The notes under the pieces: model-generated
The model's database searches: none
What the model saw: the letters and a program-made list of their open reading frames with translations, nothing else
Told to the model about the DNA's origin: nothing
NCBI GenBank assembly: GCA_042850255.1
Contig: AP031373.1
Location: 420,001-452,000, forward strand
Source of the DNA: Nanobdellota archaeon
Lineage (GTDB): Archaea > Nanobdellota > Nanobdellia > Nanobdellales > Nanobdellaceae
Direction: 5' to 3'
DNA: 32,000 bases
Part shown: positions 9,312-23,347 of the stretch, piece by piece
Position numbering within the stretch: position 1 is the stretch's first letter
How the letters are laid out: each line of letters starts with the position of its first letter
Position numbers and translations under genes: made by a program

Positions 9312-10706
9312 ATGATCAATATGGTTAATTTTGATGCTGCATTAACAGGATTCTCTTTAGCAGTTCATATAATTTTTGCTTCTATAGGTATAGCTTTACC
9401 AATAATTATTGCTATAGCAGAATTTATTGCAATAAAGTATAAATCAAAATATTATGATATATTATCTAAAAGATTAACAAAAGCTTTTGCCGTATTTTTT
9501 GCTGTAGGAACTGCTAGTGGAATTGTTGTAGCTATAGAGTTATTAATTCTTTGGCCTAAATTTATGTCTTTAGTTAGTAAAGTTGCTATTTTACCTTTAT
9601 ATATAGAAGTATTTGCATTCTTTACAGAATCTATCTTATTAAGTATATATATTTATCTATGGGACAGATTTAAAAGTAGGATAAGACACTGGATTCTAAT
9701 AATTTTTATTGCTTTAGGTGCTTCTTCTTCAGGTTTACTAATAACAATGATAAATGCATTTATGAATACTCCAGTAGGTTTTAACATTCCTTATTATTTA
9801 TCAACAGGTAAAATAATAGATGTAAATCCATTTGCAGTATTTAATACACCAACTACATGGGTGGAAATTGGACATGTAATATTTTCATCAATATTTACTG
9901 CTTCATCTTTATTTTTAGCTTATGCTTCTTATAAAATATTAAAAAGTAATGGAGTATTAAAGGAATATTATAAAAAATTAGCAAAGATTTCTGGAGCAGT
10001 TGTTATAGTAAGTTTATATTTAACTGGAGTTTATGGAATATTATCTATACATAATTTAATGGTTAATCAACCAGAAAAATATGCAGCTTTGGAGTTAAAC
10101 TTTAATTATGGTCCAAATGTTCCAGAAGTAATAGGAGGAATTTTGGTAAATAATAGTGTAATAGATGCTATATATATTCCTGGATTAATGAGTTATTTAG
10201 CAACAGGAAGTTTTAATGGAGTTATACCAAAGCAAGATACCTTATTATATTATAACCAATCTACATGGCCTCCAGTTTCATTTGTCCATAATGGATTTGA
10301 CTTTATGGCAATATTAGGATTTGTAGAAGGAGCATTTTTCTTAATTGTTACAATTTTATGGATAATCAATATAGAACCTATAAAGAAAAAGATATATAAT
10401 AAATTACCTAAAAAAATATTTTCAGATCCTTTTGATAGTCCTCTATTTTTAAAATTATTTATCGTTTCTGGAATATTATCTTTAATATTACTAGAAGATG
10501 GTTGGATTACTGCAGAAGTTGGTAGGGTACCTTGGATAATATATAATGTAATGACAATTGCAGAAGCTGCAAATACATCTCCATCAATAATACCAATAGG
10601 GATTGCTATGATAATATTTTATATAGCAATTATACCATTAACATTTTGGTTTATTAAAGAAGTGTTGAAAAGGGAAAATTTGGAAAAAGAATTAGAAGAA
10701 GAATGA
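9312..10706 (+). CDS. cydA: cytochrome bd-type quinol oxidase subunit I
   Basis: His19, Glu99 and His188 fall at or near the E. coli heme-ligand and conserved positions by hand count. The signature AEVGRVPW (GRQPW motif) lies near the C-terminus. It has about 9 TM segments and a short Q-loop. Size is 464 aa. Confidence 0.88.
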   Translation: MINMVNFDAALTGFSLAVHIIFASIGIALPIIIAIAEFIAIKYKSKYYDILSKRLTKAFAVFFAVGTASGIVVAIELLILWPKFMSLVSKVAILPLYIEVFAFFTESILLSIYIYLWDRFKSRIRHWILIIFIALGASSSGLLITMINAFMNTPVGFNIPYYLSTGKIIDVNPFAVFNTPTTWVEIGHVIFSSIFTASSLFLAYASYKILKSNGVLKEYYKKLAKISGAVVIVSLYLTGVYGILSIHNLMVNQPEKYAALELNFNYGPNVPEVIGGILVNNSVIDAIYIPGLMSYLATGSFNGVIPKQDTLLYYNQSTWPPVSFVHNGFDFMAILGFVEGAFFLIVTILWIINIEPIKKKIYNKLPKKIFSDPFDSPLFLKLFIVSGILSLILLEDGWITAEVGRVPWIIYNVMTIAEAANTSPSIIPIGIAMIIFYIAIIPLTFWFIKEVLKRENLEKELEEE

Positions 10707-11626
10707 ATTTATATATAATTATAAATTATATAATTCTTTCAGTAGTATTTTCTCTATTATCTATAGAACTAATATCTGCACTAACATTATTTTATAATAA
10801 AAATAAGTTTAATGATATTAAAAATATAATCAGTCCAGTTTGGGAAATGGTTGGTACATTTATTATATTTTTTGTTGTAAATACTGAAGTCTTATATCCT
10901 GATTTATTACCAATAATAGCAAAATTATATACTATACCAATATTATTGATAGCATTATTTATTATAAGTAGAAACGCATTTTTAGCATATTCAGAACAAA
11001 TGTGGAAGGGAAATAAAATAGATTCTGTACTATTAGCTAGAATTTATTCTATATCTACATTAATTATATCTTTTTTATCATTAGTTGTACTTATTTCTGT
11101 TCTTACAGGTTCAGGTGTTAATAATAATTTGACTAATTTTAGTTTTATACAATTTTTTTCAAATTATTATACATTAACACTAATTTTAGGAGTAATATTA
11201 GTATTATTTGGACTTTCTTTTGTATTTTATAAATTAGAAAATAATAAAAAATTATCTCCAATATTTACATTGTTAGGATTAATAATTTTAATATTCTCTT
11301 TTTATAAGTTAGGATTATATATAAATTTTGTTATATATATTATTTCTATAATAATATTTTTGATATCACTTATTTATTATTTATATGATTTTTCAAGGAA
11401 ATATATTATATTCTTGATTAATTTAATATCCTTTTTGTCTATAGTAATACTAAATTATGGAAGAATATTTAATAATCAATCTTTACTAAATTATTTAAAT
11501 AATACCCCAGTTTTACCTGCATCCTTTATAATAACATTACTGGGAGGAACTTTATTAATAATAATGTTGACTTTATTTATTTATATGTTTAGCAGACCAA
11601 GTCAGGGAGGAAATAAATATTATTAA
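10703..11626 (+). CDS. cydB: cytochrome bd-type quinol oxidase subunit II (divergent)
   Basis: It overlaps cydA by 4 nt. ISPVWEMVGTFIIFF...YP...LY.P..L....IISRNAFL aligns with the CydB P.W..NE.WL...FP..Y..LY.P..L..LI.RG pattern. It is polytopic, 307 aa, and otherwise of low similarity. Confidence 0.7.
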   Translation: MNLYIIINYIILSVVFSLLSIELISALTLFYNKNKFNDIKNIISPVWEMVGTFIIFFVVNTEVLYPDLLPIIAKLYTIPILLIALFIISRNAFLAYSEQMWKGNKIDSVLLARIYSISTLIISFLSLVVLISVLTGSGVNNNLTNFSFIQFFSNYYTLTLILGVILVLFGLSFVFYKLENNKKLSPIFTLLGLIILIFSFYKLGLYINFVIYIISIIIFLISLIYYLYDFSRKYIIFLINLISFLSIVILNYGRIFNNQSLLNYLNNTPVLPASFIITLLGGTLLIIMLTLFIYMFSRPSQGGNKYY

Positions 11627-11627
11627 A

Positions 11628-12101
11628 ATGATCAATATATTTAATCAACAATTTTATTCTGGATATATAATAAAGGAAAATAAAATATTGGCATATTCTT
11701 TGAATACAAATCAAGAAAAATTAATAAAACAATTAGAAAGTATAGCAAGATTTCATAATCTAGATGGAGATTTAATATTTGATGAAAAATTGGATAAATT
11801 TTTTGAAGAAAAAATTAAGAAATTCTTAAATGGGGAAAGGTTTTCTTTTGATTTATCATATTATAGGAATAAAGAAGTTTATGAAGAATTATCAAAATTA
11901 GATAAGTTAATAACATATAAAGAACTAAAGGAAAAAGTAAATATTAGTTATATAGAATTAATAAGAACATTAAAAAATAATCCATTTATAATATTAATAC
12001 CATGTCATAGAGTAATTAAAAGTAATAATGAAGTTGGTGGATATACTCCTCTAGGAAAAGAATTTAAAATAAAATTATTGAAGATGGAAGGTTATTTATA
12101 A
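11628..12101 (+). CDS. ogt: methylated-DNA--protein-cysteine methyltransferase (Ogt/MGMT)
   Basis: The active site IPCHRVI (PCHRV) is followed by GGY....G...K..LL..EG. Size is 157 aa. It starts 1 nt after the cydB stop. Confidence 0.88.
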   Translation: MINIFNQQFYSGYIIKENKILAYSLNTNQEKLIKQLESIARFHNLDGDLIFDEKLDKFFEEKIKKFLNGERFSFDLSYYRNKEVYEELSKLDKLITYKELKEKVNISYIELIRTLKNNPFIILIPCHRVIKSNNEVGGYTPLGKEFKIKLLKMEGYL

Positions 12102-12862
12102 TTTTCTTTATATTGTTGATAAACATATATAGAAAATAAGTTTCCTATTGGTATTAATAAAAATGAGGAAATAAATATAAGTAATATTCTTATTATTAAA
12201 TGATAATTAGATACTTCTTGATATATTAATAATATTAAAGCTAGAGAATAAATTATTAGTTGTGCTATAAGTATTTTTGCAGCTTCTTTTATATTAATAT
12301 TTTTCCAGGATATTCTTAACGATTCATATACTCTATTTTTATTGAAAACAAATATTGGAGAAGATAAAAAGAACTTATTTGTAATTATTAATGATATTAT
12401 TGATAGAATAATAAACATAATTATATATACACTTAATCCAATAGACGTATTAAAATAAAAAGATATTAAAATAGAAATAAGTAAAGATATAAATGATAAA
12501 GAAATAATTATTATAGAAAAAATAAATATATTAAATAAGTATAATAATATCATACCAAAATAATATTTTATAGATTTCCTAAAAGAATCTTTAATATTCT
12601 TTTCTTCAAAATAAATATATATTGCAGTTCTAAAAAATGGGTATATTAATATATTAATTATGAATAATATTAGCAAATAATATAGAAAAGAATAATTAAA
12701 TGTTATATTATAAATATTTAAATTAACTTTTACTAATATGGATATTAATAAATTTGATATGAAAAATATCAAATATATTAAAATAATCTGAAAAAAATTT
12801 TTATAATAAAATATAAAACTATCTTTTAATGCTTTAAAAATATTAAATTTCAATTGATTCAC
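12092..12862 (-). CDS. polytopic membrane protein of unknown function (256 aa)
   Basis: It has 6 or more hydrophobic helices. The N-terminal amphipathic FKALKDSFIFYYKNF resembles DUF975/GDPD-membrane-domain-type proteins, but only weakly. The 3' end overlaps ogt convergently by 10 nt. The start lies 20 nt inside the upstream gene. Confidence 0.6.
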   Translation of the reverse strand: MNQLKFNIFKALKDSFIFYYKNFFQIILIYLIFFISNLLISILVKVNLNIYNITFNYSFLYYLLILFIINILIYPFFRTAIYIYFEEKNIKDSFRKSIKYYFGMILLYLFNIFIFSIIIISLSFISLLISILISFYFNTSIGLSVYIIMFIILSIISLIITNKFFLSSPIFVFNKNRVYESLRISWKNINIKEAAKILIAQLIIYSLALILLIYQEVSNYHLIIRILLIFISSFLLIPIGNLFSIYVYQQYKENYK

Positions 12863-13542: not shown

Positions 13543-14889
13543 ATGTTCTTTAAATTTTTGAACGATTTTAATTATATGAATATAATTTCAATAATAGTAT
13601 TAATAATAATATTTGTAGAATTATTAATTTCAATATATACTTTGTTATTCTTATTAAACTATAAAGAAGAAAATAGAGAGATTGAAATAAAAGAATATCC
13701 TAAAGTGTCTATTATAGTTCCTGCATACAATGAAGAAAAAAATATAAAGGAAACAATTGAAAGATTAATCGAGTTAGATTATCCAAAAGAAAAATTAGAA
13801 ATTATTGTTGTAGATGACGGATCTAAGGATAATACTTTTGAAATTGCTAAAGAATATGAAGATAAATATAATTTTATAAAAGTTTATAAAAAAGAAAATG
13901 GAGGAAAGGCTTCTGCATTAAATTATGGTATAAAAAGATGTACAGGAGATTATATAGTTGTACTAGATGCAGATTCTATCCCACAAAAAGATTCTTTAAA
14001 AAAGATGATAAAATATTTTTATTTATATCCAGATATATATGTAGTAGTTCCTTCAGTACAAGTAGATGAAACAAAAAATTGGGTAGAAAAATATCAATAT
14101 ATAGATTATGTAGTATATAATTTTTCTAGAATTGTTCTAGATCAAGTAAATGCTATATTTATAGCACCGGGACCCTTTTCTGTATTTAAAAAAGAAGTTT
14201 TTGAAAAGGTGGGATTATTTGATGAAAAAAATATAACTGAAGATATGGAAATTGCATTAAGGGTACAAAAAAATGGATTAAAAATAAAATATTGTCCAGA
14301 AAGTGTTATATATACAAAACCCCCAGATACTTTTATAAAATTATTGAAACAAAGAGCAAGATGGTTTTTAGGATTTATAGAAAATTATACAAAATATAGG
14401 GATATAGAAAATGAATATTTGAGAGAATTTGGATTTGGAATAAATTTAGTATTATATATATTATTACCTCTATATTTTTCAATAATAATCTACCTTTATA
14501 TATACCAATTATACAATTTTTTTGTTAATCTGTATTTGACAAATTTTGATATTATATATTTTATAAAAGGATATTTTTTATTTAATTCGAATATATATTT
14601 ATACCAATTGTTATCAACATCTGCTCTAATTTTATATATATTTTCAATAATATTACTGGTAGATTTTTCTTTATTTATTTCATTTTATAGAAAATATGAT
14701 AAAAGTAAATCATGGAAATCTATTATTTTATATTCCATAATTTATTTAATTTTTTCTTTATATTTTAATTCCATATTTATACTAGTAGCAATATATTATA
14801 AAATATTTGGAAGAAAATTAAGATGGGGTGGAATAGTATGGGATAATAGTTTAATAAATAAAATTATAAATAAAAATAAACATGGATAA
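13543..14889 (+). CDS. family-2 glycosyltransferase, processive (synthase-like) with C-terminal membrane domain
   Basis: VSIIVPAYNEE, VVDDGSKDNT, VLDADS (DxD) and QRARW (the Q-x-x-R-W motif of processive GT2 synthases) are present. TM helices occur at the N-terminus and in the C-terminal third. An alternative start at 13576 (MNIISII...) is better placed relative to the TATA-like tract at 13549-13559. Confidence 0.88.
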   Translation: MFFKFLNDFNYMNIISIIVLIIIFVELLISIYTLLFLLNYKEENREIEIKEYPKVSIIVPAYNEEKNIKETIERLIELDYPKEKLEIIVVDDGSKDNTFEIAKEYEDKYNFIKVYKKENGGKASALNYGIKRCTGDYIVVLDADSIPQKDSLKKMIKYFYLYPDIYVVVPSVQVDETKNWVEKYQYIDYVVYNFSRIVLDQVNAIFIAPGPFSVFKKEVFEKVGLFDEKNITEDMEIALRVQKNGLKIKYCPESVIYTKPPDTFIKLLKQRARWFLGFIENYTKYRDIENEYLREFGFGINLVLYILLPLYFSIIIYLYIYQLYNFFVNLYLTNFDIIYFIKGYFLFNSNIYLYQLLSTSALILYIFSIILLVDFSLFISFYRKYDKSKSWKSIILYSIIYLIFSLYFNSIFILVAIYYKIFGRKLRWGGIVWDNSLINKIINKNKHG

Positions 14890-15541
14890 GGCAAGGGATA
14901 TTATAACAATATCTGTAGTTATATCTGTGTTAACATTTTTCTTAGGATTATCATTAGGTTATATATTATATCAATACTCATTTCAACAAAATCTATTACA
15001 AATAAATCAAATAAATTCACTAGTTATTTCCGCTCAATATCTTGCTCAATCAAAAAAATTAGAATGTACTGATAATTATTTTTCATTTTTACAATATTTA
15101 AAAAGTCAAATTGCACAAGTAGGATTGGAATTAACATATTTAGAATCTCCTGATAATATATATTTTAATAGAGGAGAAGTTGAATATTTAAAATCTCAGT
15201 ATTTTAATTTAGAATATTTACATTTTTTATTAACTCGAAATTATATAGATCAATGTAATTATACAAACTTCACTTTAATATTATACTTTTATAATAATCA
15301 ATATTGTTCTACTGCATGTACTAATGAGGGAAATATATTAACTTATTTATATGCTCAAAATCCAAATTCTTTGTATATTTACTCATTTGATTCCGATTAT
15401 CCAAATTATTTTATTAGATATTATGATTTAAAATATAATATTACTACTTGGCCTTTTATTATTTTAATAAAATATAATGAAACATATATATTTAGAGGAT
15501 TTACAAATTTATCAACATTAGAACATTATTTAACCTCATAA
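14882..15541 (+). CDS. membrane-anchored hypothetical protein with Cys-containing, sequon-rich ectodomain
   Basis: It overlaps the GT2 stop by 8 nt. It has one N-terminal TM helix, four Cys residues including C-S-T-A-C, and several N-X-S/T sites. The C-terminal beta-alpha pattern (PFIILIKYNETYIFRGFTNLSTLEHYL) is vaguely thioredoxin-fold-like. No family recognised. Confidence 0.6.
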   Translation: MDKARDIITISVVISVLTFFLGLSLGYILYQYSFQQNLLQINQINSLVISAQYLAQSKKLECTDNYFSFLQYLKSQIAQVGLELTYLESPDNIYFNRGEVEYLKSQYFNLEYLHFLLTRNYIDQCNYTNFTLILYFYNNQYCSTACTNEGNILTYLYAQNPNSLYIYSFDSDYPNYFIRYYDLKYNITTWPFIILIKYNETYIFRGFTNLSTLEHYLTS

Positions 15542-16854
15542 CTATTTACTCTATATACATATATAGAACAATCATTTGGATCTATATAATAATATATTAA
15601 TGATATATTATAGTTTTCAGGATCGAAGGGAAATGGAGTTCCACAATTTGGTGAATATACAATAAATTGTGGATATACTCTTGGAATTAAATATGTAGCA
15701 TTATACATTATATATACCTGTGCATTAGTATAATATGCAATCATTGGCCAAAAAACATTTGTTAAAATTACTTTAGGTTTATATTGGTTTAAAAACATCG
15801 AAGCTTGATAAACATAATTTAAATATGTATTACCTAAATTTGTATTATAATTTAACAAAAATATAAAACCATAATACATTGATATAATACCAGATATAGA
15901 AAATAATAAAAAGTAGGGTAACCTTAATCCTTTTATATTCTCTATGAATTTTCTAGTAATTATCACAAATACTGGCAATAACATTAATATATATCTAGCA
16001 TCCTTTGCCTTTACAAAGAATGCCAAAAATATTAAAGATAAAATTATATATAAATATATTGCTTTTTCCGAATTGTTAAATTTCTTTGGATTTTGAAATA
16101 ATGATAATAGATATATTCCAGAAAAAATGAGTAAATTATATACTAATAATGTTATTGGTTGAGAAGATGTATAAGTATATACAACTTCTGCCTGCTTAAT
16201 AAAAATATATATTGGATTATGATATAAAATAATATTGTATAAAAAGTATGGTAGAGCAAATATTAATGAATAAATTATTGTTTTTATTCTATCTTTATTA
16301 TTTTTTAAAAATACTAATGATGATATAATCCATAATCCAAATTCATATTTTGCTAATATAGACAAATCTGAAAACAAAGAATATAATATTAGATTTCTTT
16401 CTTTATTATCTTCAAGAAATCTTGTGTAAAAGTATATTGAAAATATTAACATAGACATTGCCAATATATCTGGATATATTCTAGAACCCCATATTAATAT
16501 TAATCCATTTATTGAATAAAATAAAATTAATAGAAAATTTATCCAGTTATCATTATATTTTCTTAATATTTTATATAAAAATACTGTAGATAAGGAATAA
16601 ATTATTACTAAAAATAATTTAATTGCAAATATATTAAAATTAGTTATATAAGCAATTGGTGGCAATGTCCACCAGAGTAATGGGAATCTATAATATTCAA
16701 AGTAAGGAGTATTAAATAATATATGTTTTACATTGTCTAAATATGCATATTCATCCCAAAATAAAATTGGTGGAGAGGTTATAATTACTAATAATTGTGG
16801 AATAAATGATATAAGGAATATATAAATATATTTTTTTAGATCATCCTTATTCAT
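15526..16854 (-). CDS. GT-C fold glycosyltransferase (PMT/ArnT-like, family 39/83 type)
   Basis: It is 442 aa with about 11 TM helices. An acidic first-loop motif FWDEYAYLDN (the DE motif of PMT_2/ArnT-type enzymes) follows TM1. The 3' end overlaps the convergent gene by 16 nt. Confidence 0.7.
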   Translation of the reverse strand: MNKDDLKKYIYIFLISFIPQLLVIITSPPILFWDEYAYLDNVKHILFNTPYFEYYRFPLLWWTLPPIAYITNFNIFAIKLFLVIIYSLSTVFLYKILRKYNDNWINFLLILFYSINGLILIWGSRIYPDILAMSMLIFSIYFYTRFLEDNKERNLILYSLFSDLSILAKYEFGLWIISSLVFLKNNKDRIKTIIYSLIFALPYFLYNIILYHNPIYIFIKQAEVVYTYTSSQPITLLVYNLLIFSGIYLLSLFQNPKKFNNSEKAIYLYIILSLIFLAFFVKAKDARYILMLLPVFVIITRKFIENIKGLRLPYFLLFSISGIISMYYGFIFLLNYNTNLGNTYLNYVYQASMFLNQYKPKVILTNVFWPMIAYYTNAQVYIMYNATYLIPRVYPQFIVYSPNCGTPFPFDPENYNISLIYYYIDPNDCSIYVYRVNSYEVK

Positions 16855-16889: not shown

Positions 16890-18407
16890 ATGAGAATAGA
16901 GAAACCTGAAATACACTATAATGCTTTAGATGTTTTGGCAAATCAAATTGTTGGTATGACTATAGAATATGGTGAGGTAGATATAGATTTTGTTTGGAAT
17001 ACTATAAAAAGATTATATATTTATAAAGATTTAAGTTATGAAGAATTTTTGGAAATTATAAATTTCCTAGATTCTATAAGAATATTAAGAAAAGATAATA
17101 ATAAATTAATAAAAACTAGAAAAGGACTGTTCTATTTTTTAGATAATATTTCTATGATACCTGATGAAAAATCTTATGATGTATATGATATAACTACTGG
17201 CCAAAAGATTGGGATACTACATGAAGAATTTGTTGCAAAGCATGGTAATATTGGTACAATTTTTATATTAAGAGGATTACCATGGAAAATTGAAAAAATT
17301 GATAAAAAAAGAATATATGTATCTTTACAAAACGATTTTGAATCTGCTATACCTTCCTGGGAAGGGGAATTATTACCTGTACCATTTGAAGTTGCACAAG
17401 AAGCTCAGGATTTAAAGAAAGAATTATTGGATCTAGAAGAATTAAGGAATCAAGAATTATACTTTTATCCAGATAAAAATAATATATATATTGAACAATA
17501 TAAGGATTGGTTCATAATACATGCTCCATTTGGGAATAAAGTAAATGATTCTATATCTAGAATATTATCTCAAATTATTTCTGATAAATTTGGTATAGTT
17601 GTAGGGATAAAAACAGATCCTTATAGAATATTACTAAAAGCAGGTTTTATTAAAAAAGAAGATATAAAAAATATATTAGAAAATATAAAACCTGAAGAAG
17701 TAGAATTAATATTGGAAAAGGCTATAGTAAATACTGATTTATTTTTATGGAAATTTTCACATGTAGCAAAAAGATTTGGAGTAATAAGAAAAGATGCGGA
17801 TTATTCTAGATCTACTTTAAGGAGAATACTAGAACATATTAACAATTCTCCAGTATATAAAGAAACATTAAATGAATTATTTATAGAAAAATTAGATATA
17901 AAGAATACCAAAAAAGTATTTGAAAAAATACAAAATGGAGAAATAAAGGTAAATATTGTTGATAAAGAAACTTTATCACCTTTAGGTGTATTAGGATTAG
18001 AACAATATGTTTCTGATGTATTAATTTCTGATAAATGGAGAGAAATATTAAAATTAGTAAAGGATAGAATAGAAAATACAGAAATGATATTGGTTTGTAT
18101 GGCGTGTAAATCAAAATATAAAATAAAAGTAAAAGATTATAAACAGGGATTTAAATGTAAAAAATGTGGTGGAGAATATTTTGGAGTTGCAAAAAATGAA
18201 GAAGATATTAAAGATGAAAAGAAACTAAATATTACTGCAGAATTATTAAAAAATTATGGATATAAATTTTTATTTATATATGCGGGAAGGGGAATTAGTT
18301 ATTTATCTGCAAAATTTTTGTTAAAAAAAGAATATAAAAATGAAGAAGAATTGTTATTAGATATAATTGAATATGAAAAAAGAGGATTAAAGTTTGCAAA
18401 AAGATAG
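16890..18407 (+). CDS. free-standing C-terminal module of an Lhr-type (large helicase-related) protein: winged-helix/DEAD_assoc domain plus Zn ribbon; no helicase core
   Basis: It begins ...YNALDVLANQIVGM, the LDVLAQ motif that follows the RecA-like domains in Lhr proteins. It ends with CMAC-x19-CKKC (a Zn ribbon). No Walker A, DEAD or motif VI is present anywhere in the ORF. The upstream neighbour is on the opposite strand. A TATA TTTATAAGG lies at -29 to -21. Confidence 0.65.
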   Translation: MRIEKPEIHYNALDVLANQIVGMTIEYGEVDIDFVWNTIKRLYIYKDLSYEEFLEIINFLDSIRILRKDNNKLIKTRKGLFYFLDNISMIPDEKSYDVYDITTGQKIGILHEEFVAKHGNIGTIFILRGLPWKIEKIDKKRIYVSLQNDFESAIPSWEGELLPVPFEVAQEAQDLKKELLDLEELRNQELYFYPDKNNIYIEQYKDWFIIHAPFGNKVNDSISRILSQIISDKFGIVVGIKTDPYRILLKAGFIKKEDIKNILENIKPEEVELILEKAIVNTDLFLWKFSHVAKRFGVIRKDADYSRSTLRRILEHINNSPVYKETLNELFIEKLDIKNTKKVFEKIQNGEIKVNIVDKETLSPLGVLGLEQYVSDVLISDKWREILKLVKDRIENTEMILVCMACKSKYKIKVKDYKQGFKCKKCGGEYFGVAKNEEDIKDEKKLNITAELLKNYGYKFLFIYAGRGISYLSAKFLLKKEYKNEEELLLDIIEYEKRGLKFAKR

Positions 18408-18436
18408 TTTATAAATATTTTTTATAAATAAACTTA

Positions 18437-19117
18437 ATGGCTAATGTAGTTAAAACGGCATATGATTTATATAAAAAAGATATAATATCTGGAATATTAT
18501 TTTCTTTAGCTATAACTGTTATGGGTTTACTATTTGTTATCCCAGTAATAGGCGCAATAATATACTCATTTGTTTTCCCAAGACTTTTAGTATGGTATTA
18601 TCAAAAATTATCTGGTGAAAAATTAAATCCAAACTATAAAGTATCATTTATATCAATATTTATTCCATCCCTAATATTATCTATTGGAATATTTTTATTA
18701 TTACTTGTATTAATTTTTGGAATATTTTCTTATGGATTAGGAGGAACGATTAATTCTAGTTATATTCTTAATACTCAATATCTTTATAACCAAAATATAT
18801 TTTCTACTTATTTAGGTATTTTATCAATTGTAATAATATTTATAGGTATTGTTATCTACTTATTTTCTTTATATTCTTTTTATGGATCATTATTTGGTAA
18901 AGTAGATAAATATAAATTAGATCTTTGGAATTCCATAGAAATATTTGTATATTATCTATCTATAGGACTTATAGTAAGTGTAATATTTGATATAATAGAT
19001 GCTTTATTTTCTTTAGCATCTCCAATAGCAGGTTTTATAATAGGATTAATTTTCTTGATATTATTTGGAATAGAAATACAATATTTAGTTCCAATGGTTG
19101 TTATGAAGAATTTATAA
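18437..19117 (+). CDS. paralog 1 of a tandem triplicated multipass membrane protein family (226 aa)
   Basis: It has about 5 TM helices. Blocks shared with the two downstream genes are AYxLYKKDI, P(I/V)IGAIIYS, FPRLLVWYYQKLSGEKLNPNYKVSFISIFIP, LFSLYSFYGSLFGKVDKYKLD and LVPMVVMKNL. A TATA TTTATAAATA lies about 25 nt upstream. Confidence 0.8.
   Translation: MANVVKTAYDLYKKDIISGILFSLAITVMGLLFVIPVIGAIIYSFVFPRLLVWYYQKLSGEKLNPNYKVSFISIFIPSLILSIGIFLLLLVLIFGIFSYGLGGTINSSYILNTQYLYNQNIFSTYLGILSIVIIFIGIVIYLFSLYSFYGSLFGKVDKYKLDLWNSIEIFVYYLSIGLIVSVIFDIIDALFSLASPIAGFIIGLIFLILFGIEIQYLVPMVVMKNL
18577..18666 (+). repeat. 90-nt tract 100% identical to 20094-20183 (copy in paralog 1)
   Basis: By hand alignment, cccaagacttttagtatggtattatcaaaaattatctggtgaaaaattaaatccaaactataaagtatcatttatatcaatatttattcc is identical in both genes. 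The flanking codons diverge immediately on both sides. Confidence 0.9.
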
Positions 19118-19257
19118 TTTTTTAAATATCTAGATATATTACATGGTTTTTTAAAAGTCTATTAGATTTGTAAAGGGGCTATATAGATTTAATATAAAGA
19201 AAGAAAGATAAAATTTACAAAAATATAATTTATAAATATTTCTTTTAAGTAAAATTA

Positions 19258-19917
19258 ATGACTAATATAATTCAAACAGCCTATAAATTATATAGAAAAG
19301 ATATATTGTCCGGAAGAATATTTTCTTTGGTTACCATATTATTGCAGACATTAGTTTTCTTTCCAATAGTTGGTGCTATAATATTCTCATACTTTTTTCC
19401 AAAGGTATTGACCTGGTATTATCAAAAATTATCTGGAGAAAAACTAAATCCAAATTATCATGTTTCGTTTATTTCTCTCCTTGTACCATCTATGATTGCT
19501 AGTATTGGGGGTATATTTTTGTTTTTGGGAATATTTAGTGTAATTGGTCTTTTATCTCATTCATCAAGTTATTCAATATATAATTTATCTGCTTTCCATG
19601 CATCTTCGGGATTTTTCTCAGTTTTTATGGTATTTGAGATAATTGCACTTATAGTATATATACTATCATTATATTCTTTTTATGGATCTTTATTTGGTAA
19701 GGTAAATAAATACAAGTTAGACTTTTCTAACTCTATTAAAATATTTGCATATGTTCTTTTAATAGGAATTGTTGTATATGGAATATACTATATATTAATT
19801 CTTGTATTTTCTCCTATGGCTGGTTTTGTAGGGGAGATAATTGGTACGATATTTATGATAATTATTGGAATACAGCTTTATTACTTAGTGCCAATGCTTG
19901 TTGCAAAGAATCTATAA
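19258..19917 (+). CDS. paralog 2 of the triplicated membrane protein family (219 aa)
   Basis: It has the same block structure (WYYQKLSGEKLNPNYHVSFIS, LSLYSFYGSLFGKVNKYKLD, LVPMLVAKNL). The 5' and 3' flanks are conserved with paralog 1. Confidence 0.8.
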   Translation: MTNIIQTAYKLYRKDILSGRIFSLVTILLQTLVFFPIVGAIIFSYFFPKVLTWYYQKLSGEKLNPNYHVSFISLLVPSMIASIGGIFLFLGIFSVIGLLSHSSSYSIYNLSAFHASSGFFSVFMVFEIIALIVYILSLYSFYGSLFGKVNKYKLDFSNSIKIFAYVLLIGIVVYGIYYILILVFSPMAGFVGEIIGTIFMIIIGIQLYYLVPMLVAKNL

Positions 19918-19947
19918 TTTTTAAATATCTATATATTAATATTTTTT

Positions 19948-20595
19948 ATGAACTTTACAGGGTATGTAAAAGATACCTATAATTTATACAAGAAAAATAT
20001 AGTTTTAGGATTTGCTTATGGTATATTAAAAAATATATTGGTTTTAGTAAATGCTATACCAATTATTGGTGTATATATTTATTCTTATTATTACCCAAGA
20101 CTTTTAGTATGGTATTATCAAAAATTATCTGGTGAAAAATTAAATCCAAACTATAAAGTATCATTTATATCAATATTTATTCCTCAGATATTACAAAACA
20201 TATTATTATTCGTATCATTCTTAGTTATAATCTATTTTTATTTATCTTCTTATTTTTTAACATTTAAATATAGTTTTTCCTCTTTATTATCCGGATTATC
20301 TATTTCATATTCTATAATGTTGGGTATATCTTTCCTTATCTATTTATTTTCTTTATATTCATTTTATGGTTCCCTATATGGTAAAGTAGATAAATATAAT
20401 TTTGAGGTTAATAATTCTTCCATTTTATTCTTTAATATATTATCTTTGTCATTGGTATTTGGAATAATAGAAATTCTAGTTTCTTTGATTGTTTTAATTA
20501 ATACTTTATTATTAATAGTACCTATATTAATATGGATACTTTTCTTTACTTCAATTTTAGATCTACTACCAATGATAGTTATAAAGGATATGTAA
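19948..20595 (+). CDS. paralog 3 of the triplicated membrane protein family (215 aa)
   Basis: It has the same blocks (YPRLLVWYYQKLSGEKLNPNYKVSFISIFIP, LFSLYSFYGSLYGKVDKYNFE, LLPMIVIKDM). The remainder is the most divergent of the three. It starts 30 nt after the paralog 2 stop. Confidence 0.8.
   Translation: MNFTGYVKDTYNLYKKNIVLGFAYGILKNILVLVNAIPIIGVYIYSYYYPRLLVWYYQKLSGEKLNPNYKVSFISIFIPQILQNILLFVSFLVIIYFYLSSYFLTFKYSFSSLLSGLSISYSIMLGISFLIYLFSLYSFYGSLYGKVDKYNFEVNNSSILFFNILSLSLVFGIIEILVSLIVLINTLLLIVPILIWILFFTSILDLLPMIVIKDM
20094..20183 (+). repeat. 90-nt tract 100% identical to 18577-18666 (copy in paralog 3)
   Basis: As for the partner copy. The homologous stretch in the intervening paralog 2 (about 19397-19486) differs at many positions, especially at both ends. 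Confidence 0.9.
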
Positions 20596-20636
20596 TTATC
20601 CTTTAGTGGTTATTATTTTTAATCAAAAAAAGAAAG

Positions 20637-20646
20637 ATTTTTAAAT
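20637..20646 (+). promoter_or_regulatory. TATA-box-like element upstream of the S-layer gene
   Basis: TTTTTAAATA is centred about 27 nt upstream of the ATG at 20669, the spacing seen at many other genes in this window. This is consistent with a leaderless or near-leaderless transcript. Confidence 0.5.
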
Positions 20647-20668: not shown

Positions 20669-23347
20669 ATGGAAAAGAAATATAAAGGAGGACATAGAAA
20701 TATATCTTTTATGATGAAAGGTAAGACTTTGGCTGCCATAGGTGCATTAACAGCACTAGGTTTGGCAATATATGCACAATCTGGAACACCAACAATTGGA
20801 CAATTGGCTCAAGCAATGAAGACAAATCCAACAGCATGGACAGTAGTAGTAGGAGCAAATGCAAAGGCATCAGATGTTGTCGGGGCTTCAAATATAATTG
20901 CAGCTTTAGAAACATTTACTTCTGTACCAACAACTTCTTCAGTTAATACATCCTCATTACAAGTACAATTACAAGGAACAATTCCAGTATTACAAAATTC
21001 ATATCCATTATATACACAAGGACAACCATTGTACTTAGGTGATTCATTAAGTACATCAATACAAACAATACAAGTTGGATCAGGATCATTTACAGCAAAT
21101 TACAATGGACAACAAACAACATATTCATATACAGCATATGTACAAACACAACCATCATATACATTAAGTTATGTACAAGCAACACCGGGACAATCTACAC
21201 CAGAAGTTGCATTAGCAACAACCAATCCACAATCATCTCCAATTGCATTAACAGTATACTTCACTCCAGCATTAAACTTAACACAATTATCACAATCACC
21301 ACAACCAATACAAATATTTAATACAACATATTATATAGTACCATCTTCAAATTCTAATTATATTAACTTTGTACCAGCAGCACAAGTTGTAACATTAAAC
21401 GTAAACCAATCAACAACATTTAATGGTGTACAAATTACATTACAAGGTGTAACTGCTCAATATTCTTCAGGTACAACAGTTTCATCTGGAGTCCCAGCTG
21501 CAGTATTAAATATAAATGGACAAACATATACAGTACAAGTAGGTTCACAATTATATGTTGATGGAGTAAATATATTAGTAGTAAACATATATGGACCATT
21601 ATCAACAGTTGTAAGTACTACACAAACTGGATATGTTGAATTAGTACTAGGTACTTCTGGATATCAATTGCCTATATCAACAACACCAGCTAATATATTA
21701 ACATCTTCAGGACAAGTATTAGATAATGCACAAGTTCAAATGTCAGAACAAGGAACTAATTTAATATCATCAATTACATTCTTATTCCCACAATTACCAG
21801 AAATTGGAACATCAGGAAATTACGGAGTTGTTAATGGACATTCATATCCATTACCATTATTCAATTATGAATTAACATTCCCATCTGTAACAATACCAGC
21901 ACAAAATTCCGATTTAGTACAAGTACAAGCATCAACTGTTGGAAGTATGGAATATCAATTTACATTATCATATCCAGATGCAGTAACAGGAAAGACATAT
22001 TCATTCACATTATTCAATTATAATGGAGACTTAGTACCATTCCAAACTGGTACAGTAACCACATCAGCACCTGTTACAACTACTTATTACTATGCAGGTG
22101 AATTTGTACCAATAAACATGGCTACACCTATAAATGCAACTACTAATTATACTTCAATGACAATTACAACAGGACAATACTTCGCAGTATATAATCCAAC
22201 TGCTGGAGCATCACAAATATTCCAATTACAATCTATAACAACCGGATCAAATGGACAACCAGAAGCTACAGTAGAAGATGTAATATCTGGACAAACATAT
22301 ACATTATATCAAGGACAACCATTAATAGTTGCAGATGGTGTAGCAATAAATGTAACAGCAATTAATACTAATGAAAGTTATGTAACATTATCTGCTCCAA
22401 ATGGATATGGTGTAAATCTAAACTCATTATGGGTAGTACTACCAGGACCATCTCCAACTCAATCACCAGTACTTAGTTTAACAGGTTTTGGTAATACATC
22501 AGTATCTGTAGAAATATCTGAATATTATCCAGGATACACAGGATTAAATACTAATCCAGATAATGCAACATTTACATTAAGTGCAACAAACGGTATAGGA
22601 GCTCCAACTACAACAGATATACCAAAAGGTGTAGTAGAGCCTTTAACAGTAACATCAGGAACAACGACAGTAAGCTACTGGTTAGATATGGCAGGTACAT
22701 ATATAACGGAAACATCAACAGGAAGTTCAGGAACACAAACATTGGCAGTATATGTACCATTAACACCAATTACATATCCAATTTCATTAGCACCAACAGG
22801 TGCACAAACACAGCAAGAAACAACAACAGTAGGTGTTGGACAAACAATACCTGGAACTCAACTAACAGTTGTCGGAGTATCTGGTGTATCAACAACAGGA
22901 TATTCACAACCAACAGCATTAGTAGGAAAAGTAATATTAGATACACAAGTAACACCTTCAATGAGCGATATAGTAGTTGTAGGAGGACCAGCAGTTAACA
23001 TGTTAGCAGCAGATGCAATAAGACAATGGGTAGCTGAAATGAATTCAACATTAGCAATGCAATTACCATCTTCAGGATATATAACAGGTTCACAATTACA
23101 ACCAGTATTACAACAATTAGGAGTTGACTTTGGACCAGGTACATCATTAATATTTGTAGGAGGACAATATCCAAATGAATTAGTAATATTTGGATGGTAC
23201 GGAAATGATACAACAGAAGCAACAGAATTATTCGCAAACTACTTACTATATGGAACAGATGCAGCACAACTAAGCAATTACACATTAGTATTATTGAACG
23301 ATCAGCAAACAGTAAACGGTTTACCATCAGTTACACCAATTCAATAA
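20669..23347 (+). CDS. S-layer protein (Methanococcales/Nanoarchaeum-type S_layer_N and S_layer_C motifs)
   Basis: It has a signal-peptide-like MMKGKTLAAIGALTALGLAIYA. The N-terminal VVVGANAKASDVVGASNIIAAL and C-terminal DIVVVGGPAVNMLAADAI match the conserved ends of archaeal S-layer proteins. Composition is T/S/Q/N/V/G/Y-rich with few charged residues, and I hand-counted 13 N-X-S/T sequons. Codon use and GC differ from the neighbours, as expected for a highly expressed gene. An alternative start is at 20711. Confidence 0.85.
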   Translation: MEKKYKGGHRNISFMMKGKTLAAIGALTALGLAIYAQSGTPTIGQLAQAMKTNPTAWTVVVGANAKASDVVGASNIIAALETFTSVPTTSSVNTSSLQVQLQGTIPVLQNSYPLYTQGQPLYLGDSLSTSIQTIQVGSGSFTANYNGQQTTYSYTAYVQTQPSYTLSYVQATPGQSTPEVALATTNPQSSPIALTVYFTPALNLTQLSQSPQPIQIFNTTYYIVPSSNSNYINFVPAAQVVTLNVNQSTTFNGVQITLQGVTAQYSSGTTVSSGVPAAVLNINGQTYTVQVGSQLYVDGVNILVVNIYGPLSTVVSTTQTGYVELVLGTSGYQLPISTTPANILTSSGQVLDNAQVQMSEQGTNLISSITFLFPQLPEIGTSGNYGVVNGHSYPLPLFNYELTFPSVTIPAQNSDLVQVQASTVGSMEYQFTLSYPDAVTGKTYSFTLFNYNGDLVPFQTGTVTTSAPVTTTYYYAGEFVPINMATPINATTNYTSMTITTGQYFAVYNPTAGASQIFQLQSITTGSNGQPEATVEDVISGQTYTLYQGQPLIVADGVAINVTAINTNESYVTLSAPNGYGVNLNSLWVVLPGPSPTQSPVLSLTGFGNTSVSVEISEYYPGYTGLNTNPDNATFTLSATNGIGAPTTTDIPKGVVEPLTVTSGTTTVSYWLDMAGTYITETSTGSSGTQTLAVYVPLTPITYPISLAPTGAQTQQETTTVGVGQTIPGTQLTVVGVSGVSTTGYSQPTALVGKVILDTQVTPSMSDIVVVGGPAVNMLAADAIRQWVAEMNSTLAMQLPSSGYITGSQLQPVLQQLGVDFGPGTSLIFVGGQYPNELVIFGWYGNDTTEATELFANYLLYGTDAAQLSNYTLVLLNDQQTVNGLPSVTPIQ

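Follow-up and report, generated by a model that had tools for sequence, protein, structure and literature searches.

Three consecutive same-strand genes of the Nanobdellota (formerly Nanoarchaeota) archaeon YN1, an ectosymbiont on Sulfurisphaera ohwakuensis (PMC11420986), encode paralogous membrane proteins in which one short segment is homogenised by gene conversion. The genes, YN1_4970, YN1_4980 and YN1_4990 (p1, p2 and p3; 226, 219 and 215 amino acids, aa), lie directly upstream of a putative S-layer gene in a 32,000-nucleotide (nt) stretch of contig AP031373.1, referred to below as the window. Conversion recurs at the same place in the gene in Nanobsidianus stetteri Nst1 and Nanobdella aerobiophila MJ1. 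The three genes are real and uncharacterised, and the feature in which the original prediction had seen its central mechanistic clue, an invariant loop, is explained by concerted evolution. On balance, the array is slightly favoured to have arisen by tandem expansion, within one lineage, of a membrane-protein family confined to Nanobdellota, and the proposal that it forms a diversifying contact system remains speculation.

Recurrent gene conversion of the first cytoplasmic loop

Codon alignment reveals that p1 and p3, which overall share 46% protein identity and 62% DNA identity, contain a tract of 90 nt that is 100% identical, perfect at all synonymous sites, and encodes residues P48–P77 (PRLLVWYYQKLSGEKLNPNYKVSFISIFIP). 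In column shuffles of the p1/p3 alignment, the longest identical run averages 12 nt and its 99.9th percentile is 24 nt, and across the YN1, Nst1 and MJ1 pairs this percentile is 24–26 nt. The equivalent stretch of p2 lies outside the recent tract and differs from p1 and p3 at 23 of 90 nt; nine of its codons differ synonymously only, so that p2 shows ordinary purifying selection here. The same part of the gene carries a 51-nt identical run, with 155 nt at 89% identity, in the Nst1 pair, and a 69-nt identical run, with ~130 nt at 96–100% identity, in MJ1_0158/MJ1_0159, two genes that are 64% identical. Together, these tracts show recurrent short-tract gene conversion of the segment spanning the first helical hairpin (HP1), loop 1 and the second transmembrane (TM) helix, independently in YN1, Nst1 and MJ1.

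The identity of the loop between paralogs does not extend to other genomes, where it reads WYYQKLSGEKLNPNY in YN1, WYYTKVTGDNINPDY in Nst1, KYYYEKLTKEKLDSKL in MJ1 and WYYNKTIGNIKTDY in Nanoclepta. The earlier claim that an invariant loop marks a conserved partner or a catalytic site is thereby lost: the loop differs between genomes, its identity within YN1 is the product of conversion, and no acidic or histidine residue of the family is conserved. Within the tract, the YN1 sequence is 77% identical to L001_b, the type-B copy of the related genome L001, against 49% to the type-A copy L001_a. The tract is thus B-type, and conversion most probably ran from the B copy, p3, into the A copy, p1. 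At the border of the tract, ten natural alleles of the Nst1_a-type gene combine a-type (TSSKSLLIPTIL) and b-type (TAFLSLLIPNLL) states in mosaic form, indicating that conversion is ongoing in populations. More generally, identity between tandem paralogs should not be read as functional invariance without recourse to synonymous sites and to other genomes.

A separate observation concerns P0026, a 136-aa metagenomic fragment whose N-terminal part resembles the Nst1 b-copy and whose C-terminal part resembles the a-copy. It represents either a natural b/a recombinant generated by unequal crossing-over within the array or a chimera formed over the repeat during metagenome assembly.

Family, topology and rate of evolution

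The open reading frames (ORFs), the alignment and the phmmer comparisons (E-values of 2e-52 and 4e-35) agree that the three genes are paralogs, as predicted, and the five conserved blocks and three variable segments quoted beforehand are all found as written in the alignment. In the three-way alignment, p2 and p3 are 52–54% identical to copy 1. The long direct repeats of the window comprise two paralog repeat families only, alongside two other direct repeats of 49 and 43 nt. An exhaustive HMMER search of 1.84 billion cluster representatives with a three-sequence profile retrieves 29 representatives at E<=1e-3, and all organism-named members belong to Nanobdella, Nanopusillus, Nanopusillaceae, Nanoclepta or Nanoarchaeota NZ13-N. 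Word-indexed homolog searches return the window's own proteins and two others only, as hydrophobic words saturate the candidate list. No copy matches Pfam, NCBIfam, PADLOC or PHROGs, which bears out the absence of a named family, and Foldseek searches of the family model against PDB and BFVD give nothing significant (best E=1.2 and 1.4). No aspartate, glutamate or histidine is conserved family-wide, and only P48 and S166 are invariant.

A marginal hidden Markov model match (E=0.006, PDB sequences) links residues ~13–53 of the family (window ~18473–18595) to the hydrophobic hairpin in the translocation domain of botulinum neurotoxin A. It is probably a convergence of motif and composition in a helix-IPxxG-helix membrane hairpin, and a relationship is not accepted.

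The AlphaFold 2 (AF2) model of p1 (predicted local distance difference test score 93.8, predicted template-modelling score 0.87) supplies the helix boundaries. DSSP assignment on this model places helices at residues 16–32 and 38–59, separated by a five-residue break (33–37) at the conserved IPxIG motif; these form HP1. The second hairpin (HP2) consists of two long helices (67–102 and 109–143), and the third (HP3) of helices 163–192 and 196–225 joined by a PxxG turn. The mean number of lysine and arginine residues is 3.0 in the N-terminal helix, ~3 (2.2+0.9) in residues 48–66, 2.3 in loop 153–162 and 1.0 at the C-terminus, against 0.04 in turn 33–37, 0.48 in the variable region and 0 in turn 193–195. 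This alternation points to three hairpins, six membrane helices in all, with the N- and C-terminus inside, and does not fit five TM helices with the N-terminus outside. The model and charge pattern therefore fit proteins of ~200–235 aa that each comprise three helical hairpins and six membrane helices with cytoplasmic termini. In addition, alignment of the N-terminal with the C-terminal part by hhalign (probability 72.8%, P=3e-5) superimposes helix-IPxIG-helix on helix-PxxG-helix, suggesting that HP1 may be a repeat of the clear two-TM hairpin HP3. The five-helix topology originally proposed is probably wrong, given the DSSP break and the charge pattern, whereas its assignment of the lysine-rich loops to the cytoplasm agrees with their charge, and that of the variable segment between TM2 and TM3 to the exterior with its low charge and S-layer-like composition.

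Conserved features are the Pro/Gly hairpin turns and the interfacial aromatic and lysine motifs (WYY, GK); no polar or charged residue inside the membrane helices is conserved family-wide. The tip of HP2 is 0–6% charged and 57–74% S/T/N/Q/Y/G, compared with 5% and 53% in the mature S-layer protein and 33% and 25% in cytoplasmic neighbours, a pattern that is expected of an acid-exposed protein in a thermoacidophile. Over long distances no region is less conserved or more variable in length than the tip (4–35 aa; column identity 0.22 vs 0.4–0.6 elsewhere).

The family evolves 2–6 times faster than the flanking genes and is the fastest gene set of the block. Between YN1 and L001, flanking proteins are 73–91% identical (dN, the nonsynonymous substitution rate, 0.05–0.16), the p3 ortholog 63% (dN 0.24), and p1 and p2 only 37–45% to any counterpart; between YN1 and Nst1, neighbours are 77–83% identical, the S-layer protein 63% and the family 33–40%. 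The ratio of dN to the synonymous rate (dS) is 0.2–0.6 in deeper comparisons, where dS nears saturation, and 0.8 in the closest pair, Nst1_b vs L004_b. Ratios of 0.2–0.8 indicate that the genes are functional, though weakly constrained or partly positively selected. In the closest pair the tip carries ~5 amino-acid and no synonymous differences, although these counts are very small. Among ten alleles of the Nst1_a-type ortholog, variable sites number 4/34 in the tip and 31/201 elsewhere (Fisher p=0.8), and variability peaks in TM4–TM5. Diversifying selection focused on the exterior is thus not demonstrated: of the suggested diversifying exterior, rapid family evolution, copy-number change and tip divergence at distance stand, and allelic enrichment in the tip does not.

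Organisation of the array and its surroundings

The slot flanked by the Lhr-C and S-layer genes contains one copy in L007, two in L001, L005, Nst1 and MJ1, and three in YN1, in line with the copy-number variation that had been suggested between lineages. Outside the tract, p3 groups with L005_b and with L001_b (P0004; 63% identity), p1 and p2 are most closely related to one another (49%), MJ1_0159 shows type-B sequence features like those of p3, and Nst1 carries two A-type copies. This differing make-up of A and B copies indicates that the array has been remodelled repeatedly. The 5' flank of p1 recurs upstream of p2 (Table 1), which indicates that the duplication of the gene took its promoter with it. 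Between p1 and p2, the 140-nt spacer (19118–19257) starts as a copy of the p2–p3 spacer (TTTTTAAATATCTA...) and ends as a copy of the p1 promoter region, so that the duplication unit included both flanks. Rfam reports two tRNAs only and nothing in this spacer.

Table 1. Coordinates of the array, its control elements and neighbouring genes in the window (TATA-like boxes are read from the sequence of a 23% GC genome)
Feature	Position	Strand	Remarks
p1 (YN1_4970)	18437-19117	+	Type-A-like, probable conversion-tract recipient; ORF, alignment, phmmer, AF2 model
p2 (YN1_4980)	19258-19917	+	YN1-lineage duplicate of p1; 49% identity to p1 outside tract, 5' flank common with p1
p3 (YN1_4990)	19948-20595	+	Type-B, probable tract donor; orthologous to L001_b (P0004)
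Gene-conversion tract, p1 copy	18577-18666	+	Identical to 20094-20183
Gene-conversion tract, p3 copy	20094-20183	+	Codon alignment, shuffles
Equivalent stretch of p2	19398-19487	+	Outside recent tract
5' flank and gene start of p1	18400-18512	+	Duplicated at 19221-19333, 81% identity over 113 nt
TATA-like box of p1 (TTTATAAAT)	18408-18416	+	Position -29
TATA-like box of p2	19229-19237	+	Position -29
TATA-like box of p3	19918-19926	+	Position -30
TATA-like box of S-layer gene	20638-20646	+	Position -31
TTTTAATCAAA motif	20617-20627	+	~52 nt upstream of S-layer start, ~10 nt upstream of TATA-like box
Putative S-layer protein YN1_5000	20669-23347	+	892 aa, signal peptide; Pfam S_layer_C 31 bits vs 23.9 threshold
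Lhr-C	16890-18407	+	Stand-alone C-terminal half of Lhr-type helicase (WH_Lhr, DEAD_assoc, zinc ribbon), no helicase core; upstream border of slot
Membrane GT2	13543-14889	+	Glycosylation neighbour
219-aa unknown protein	14882-15541	+	Neighbour in glycosylation block
PMT_2-type GT-C	15526-16854	-	Glycosylation neighbour
256-aa polytopic membrane protein	12092-12862	-	No Pfam hit
Cytochrome bd oxidase subunits I and II	9312-11626	+	

The array was described as lying directly upstream of the S-layer gene, and the next ORF indeed passes the Pfam S_layer_C threshold; its product, YN1_5000, is named a putative S-layer protein in PMC11420986. Reading of its translation by eye, with no formal test, shows no hydrophobic stretch at the C-terminus. 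The Nanobdella S-layer gene MJ1_0160 has the highest expression of all genes in that organism; its product has no TM anchor, and the proposed anchor, MJ1_0707, is encoded elsewhere (Nanobdella transcriptome paper). The polytopic YN1 proteins, with at most ~35 external residues, are thus unlikely to be S-layer anchors themselves. G+C content reaches 0.32–0.36 across the S-layer gene region (21000–23000) against ~0.18–0.30 elsewhere in the window, consistent with the T/S/Q/G/V/P-rich, charge-poor composition of the encoded protein.

The TATA-like boxes at -29 to -31 suggest that the four YN1 genes may be transcribed independently and as leaderless messages. The AATCAAA core of the TTTTAATCAAA-like motif occurs upstream of the S-layer gene in seven of seven lineages (YN1, L001, L005, L006, L007, L015 and L016), and the motif is a candidate promoter or regulatory element for the gene with the highest expression.

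Upstream of the array, a 10-kb block encoding AhpC, AsnC, MGMT, a metallo-beta-lactamase, GT2, an unknown protein, the PMT_2-like GT-C and Lhr-C is collinear in YN1, L001 and MJ1. The part comprising GT2, the 219-aa unknown protein and the PMT_2-type GT-C is also found in L001, MJ1 and Nanoclepta. Lhr-C is kept as a stand-alone gene in Nst1, MJ1, L001 and Nanoclepta and presumably resembles split genes of the kind reported for Nanoarchaeota. Because the whole block is collinear, the unrelated Lhr-C included, adjacency to the S-layer gene alone is not strong evidence for a functional linkage. A scan of genome contigs anchored on the S-layer protein returned Nst1 only.

Two further genes of the window deserve mention. 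The 256-aa polytopic membrane protein lies next to the metallo-beta-lactamase gene, is kept in L001, MJ1 and Nanoclepta, and has an N-terminal amphipathic start (NIFKALKDSFIFYYKNF) similar to that of the family; hhalign against the family gives a probability of 3.4%, confined to the N-terminus and not significant. The cytochrome bd oxidase genes belong to a type flagged in terrestrial Nanoarchaeota, in which no quinone synthesis was found, as rich in non-synonymous single-nucleotide polymorphisms (SNPs) (PMC6142677).

Possible function and comparison with known systems

In the history proposed here, the Nanobdella/Nanopusillus clade would ancestrally have possessed the slot between the Lhr-C and S-layer genes, which in L001, L005 and MJ1 is filled by a type-A plus type-B pair, and in YN1 the A copy would have been duplicated together with its promoter to yield A-A'-B. 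The copies diverge quickly, and a ~50–130-nt segment covering the end of HP1, cytoplasmic loop 1 and the start of TM2 is repeatedly homogenised by conversion. The paralogs would sit side by side as non-catalytic subunits of one cytoplasmic-membrane complex, and a cytoplasmic interface or partner common to the subunits would keep this segment identical between copies. Such a complex would serve an envelope function tied to the neighbouring glycosylation (GT2/PMT_2) and S-layer genes. The lack of conserved catalytic-type residues, the joint retention of A and B copies and the homogenised segment point towards non-catalytic subunits of one complex, and we regard an envelope-associated membrane complex with a shared cytoplasmic interface as a possible, tentative interpretation. 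A bolder version is quite improbable: in it, the A and B paralogs would constitute a Nanobdellales-specific envelope complex, acting as an S-layer or glycan-assembly platform or in the uptake of host lipids or metabolites, and conversion would be selected for compatibility with a fast-evolving partner. If correct, it would represent a new envelope or symbiosis machine without counterpart outside the clade.

Several observations weigh against a shared envelope complex. The functional part of the proposal derives from the neighbourhood and the conversion pattern; the conservation of the neighbourhood can be explained by general collinearity, and conversion may act on the segment for no other reason than that, as the best-conserved stretch, it offers the homology needed for recombination. 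Pairwise comparison finds no conversion tract in the L001, L005 or Nanoclepta pairs. On a Nanoclepta-like contig, the pair lies between PMT_2 and Lhr-C, and the S-layer gene follows 5 kb on, beyond GatD and GatE. Distant members occur as single copies at other sites, beside tRNA-modification, Hjc or RLI genes. The adjacency to the S-layer gene that was taken as a sign of a surface system holds in YN1 as an arrangement but is broken in Nanoclepta and missing in distant members, and it does not support a functional link. Structurally, the reading of HP1 as a hairpin rather than a kinked single TM helix depends on the DSSP assignment, the charge distribution and a moderate hhalign score.

A diversifying surface or contact system, in which alternative external loops on a positively selected exterior would serve host recognition, attachment or escape from viruses or host factors, is quite unlikely. 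It draws on the divergence and length variation of the tip, on the family's evolutionary rate and changing copy number, and on the amino-acid differences in the Nst1_b/L004_b tip at an overall dN/dS of 0.8, and hypothetical Nanoarchaeota surface proteins generally carry more non-synonymous SNPs (PMC6142677). Against this, the tip counts in that pair are very small, the ten alleles show no tip enrichment and vary most in TM4–TM5, and dN/dS is below 1 in every deeper comparison, although dS is saturated there. Moreover, the short exposed part would sit beneath the S-layer, which makes it a poor host-recognition surface, and these genomes encode, at other loci, candidate adhesins that have large folds of the Ig, lectin or pectin-lyase type. 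A host-receptor role is less likely than a role in an envelope complex.

It is also unlikely that the family belongs, as a highly diverged branch, to the GPDPase_memb (PF10110)/DUF975/DUF4013/YciC class and has a generic membrane role, its tandem copies being neutral duplicates. The UniRef name of the Nanoclepta member P0042, 'Glycerophosphoryl diester phosphodiesterase membrane domain-containing protein', favours this assignment, as does an N-terminal amphipathic 'F..YKK' helix followed by hydrophobic hairpins, which we take to be typical of the class. A Pfam scan of 27 members at E<=10 yields sub-threshold matches only, to EI24/CysZ in three, DUF4112 in three, DUF624 in one and DUF898 in one, nearly all on the N-terminal hydrophobic hairpin, where the weak DUF624, DUF898 and DUF4112 matches coincide. 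The best DUF4112 (PF13430) match, 20.7 bits in P0031 against a threshold of 23.3, covers only a 36-residue IPxxG hairpin, and this candidate is rejected. The P0042 label is reproduced neither by current Pfam nor by precomputed Pfam hits, of which P0042 has none. No match to PF10110, DUF975, DUF4013 or UPF0259 is found at E<=10 among 31 members (the 27 of the profile plus P0042, P0017, P0005 and P0041), so that the DUF4013/DUF975-like membership proposed for checking finds no support, and hhalign of the family profile with E. coli YciC (UPF0259) gives a probability of 0.5%. Furthermore, purely neutral duplicates would not persist as A+B pairs in several lineages at dN/dS <1. A literature search on DUF975, DUF4013 and PF10110 yielded no functional information.

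Least likely of all is a channel or transporter for small solutes, or a protein that handles lipids, assembled from membrane hairpins, distantly CysZ/EI24-like and forming a hetero-oligomeric pore of paralogs, which could matter to a symbiont importing host metabolites and lipids. The EI24/CysZ (PF07264) matches fall on the same region in all three members concerned (protein ~16–115, profile ~54–161; E 0.03–0.5), the Pro/Gly turns and interfacial WYY and GK motifs are conserved, and the genes occur as tandem pairs. However, every match stays under the gathering score (best 14.8 bits, E=0.032, vs 32 bits), and hhalign with E. coli CysZ gives a probability of 0.4% over 13 columns, aligning only the IPGIG turn. 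CysZ structures are absent among the top 50 of 89 Foldseek PDB matches, the interior of the membrane helices has no conserved polar or charged residue, and TM4–TM5 is the most variable part of the protein.

Experimental work on archaeal ectosymbiosis relies chiefly on cultivated Nanobdellota such as YN1, Nanobdella and Nanopusillus, and to our knowledge almost nothing is known of their integral membrane proteins. The family described here is clade-restricted, is present in one to three copies in a conserved envelope-gene neighbourhood where it evolves fastest, and is confidently foldable without a relative of solved structure. These properties recommend it as a concrete candidate for a part in envelope or symbiosis-specific biology, and as a good subject for experiments on the envelope of DPANN archaea. 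The case as a whole is a clean example of recurrent gene conversion, and not demonstrably a new system.

Among known proteins, the GPDPase_memb (PF10110), DUF975 (PF06161), DUF4013 (PF13197) and UPF0259 YciC families resemble the YN1 family in size (~200–250 aa), in having hydrophobic helical hairpins after an amphipathic, cytoplasmic N-terminal helix, and in lacking catalytic residues or a known function; the YN1 family differs in being found in Nanobdellota only, in its tandem arrays and in the absence of a match to any of these Pfam models at E<=10. CysZ/EI24 proteins likewise have partly short helical hairpins with a Pro-x-x-Gly turn and give weak, co-located matches in 3/27 members, whereas the YN1 family lacks conserved polar pore residues and scores far under the gathering threshold. 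SlaB-type anchors of Sulfolobales are also membrane proteins encoded beside the major S-layer gene, but they combine one C-terminal TM helix with a large glycosylated extracellular stalk, whereas the YN1 proteins are polytopic with an external segment of 4–35 residues; a SlaB-like anchor is rejected because hydropathy and the AF2 model both reveal a polytopic protein without a large extracellular domain. No silent donor cassettes or recombination signals are seen. The closest likeness is to tandem arrays under concerted evolution, such as duplicated surface and membrane gene families of bacteria and archaea: identical tracts of 51–90 nt lie in genes of ~62–64% identity, they recur in three lineages, and their borders are polymorphic in natural alleles. 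In contrast to antigenic-cassette arrays, the part homogenised in the YN1-type family is not a variable cassette but the conserved cytoplasmic face.

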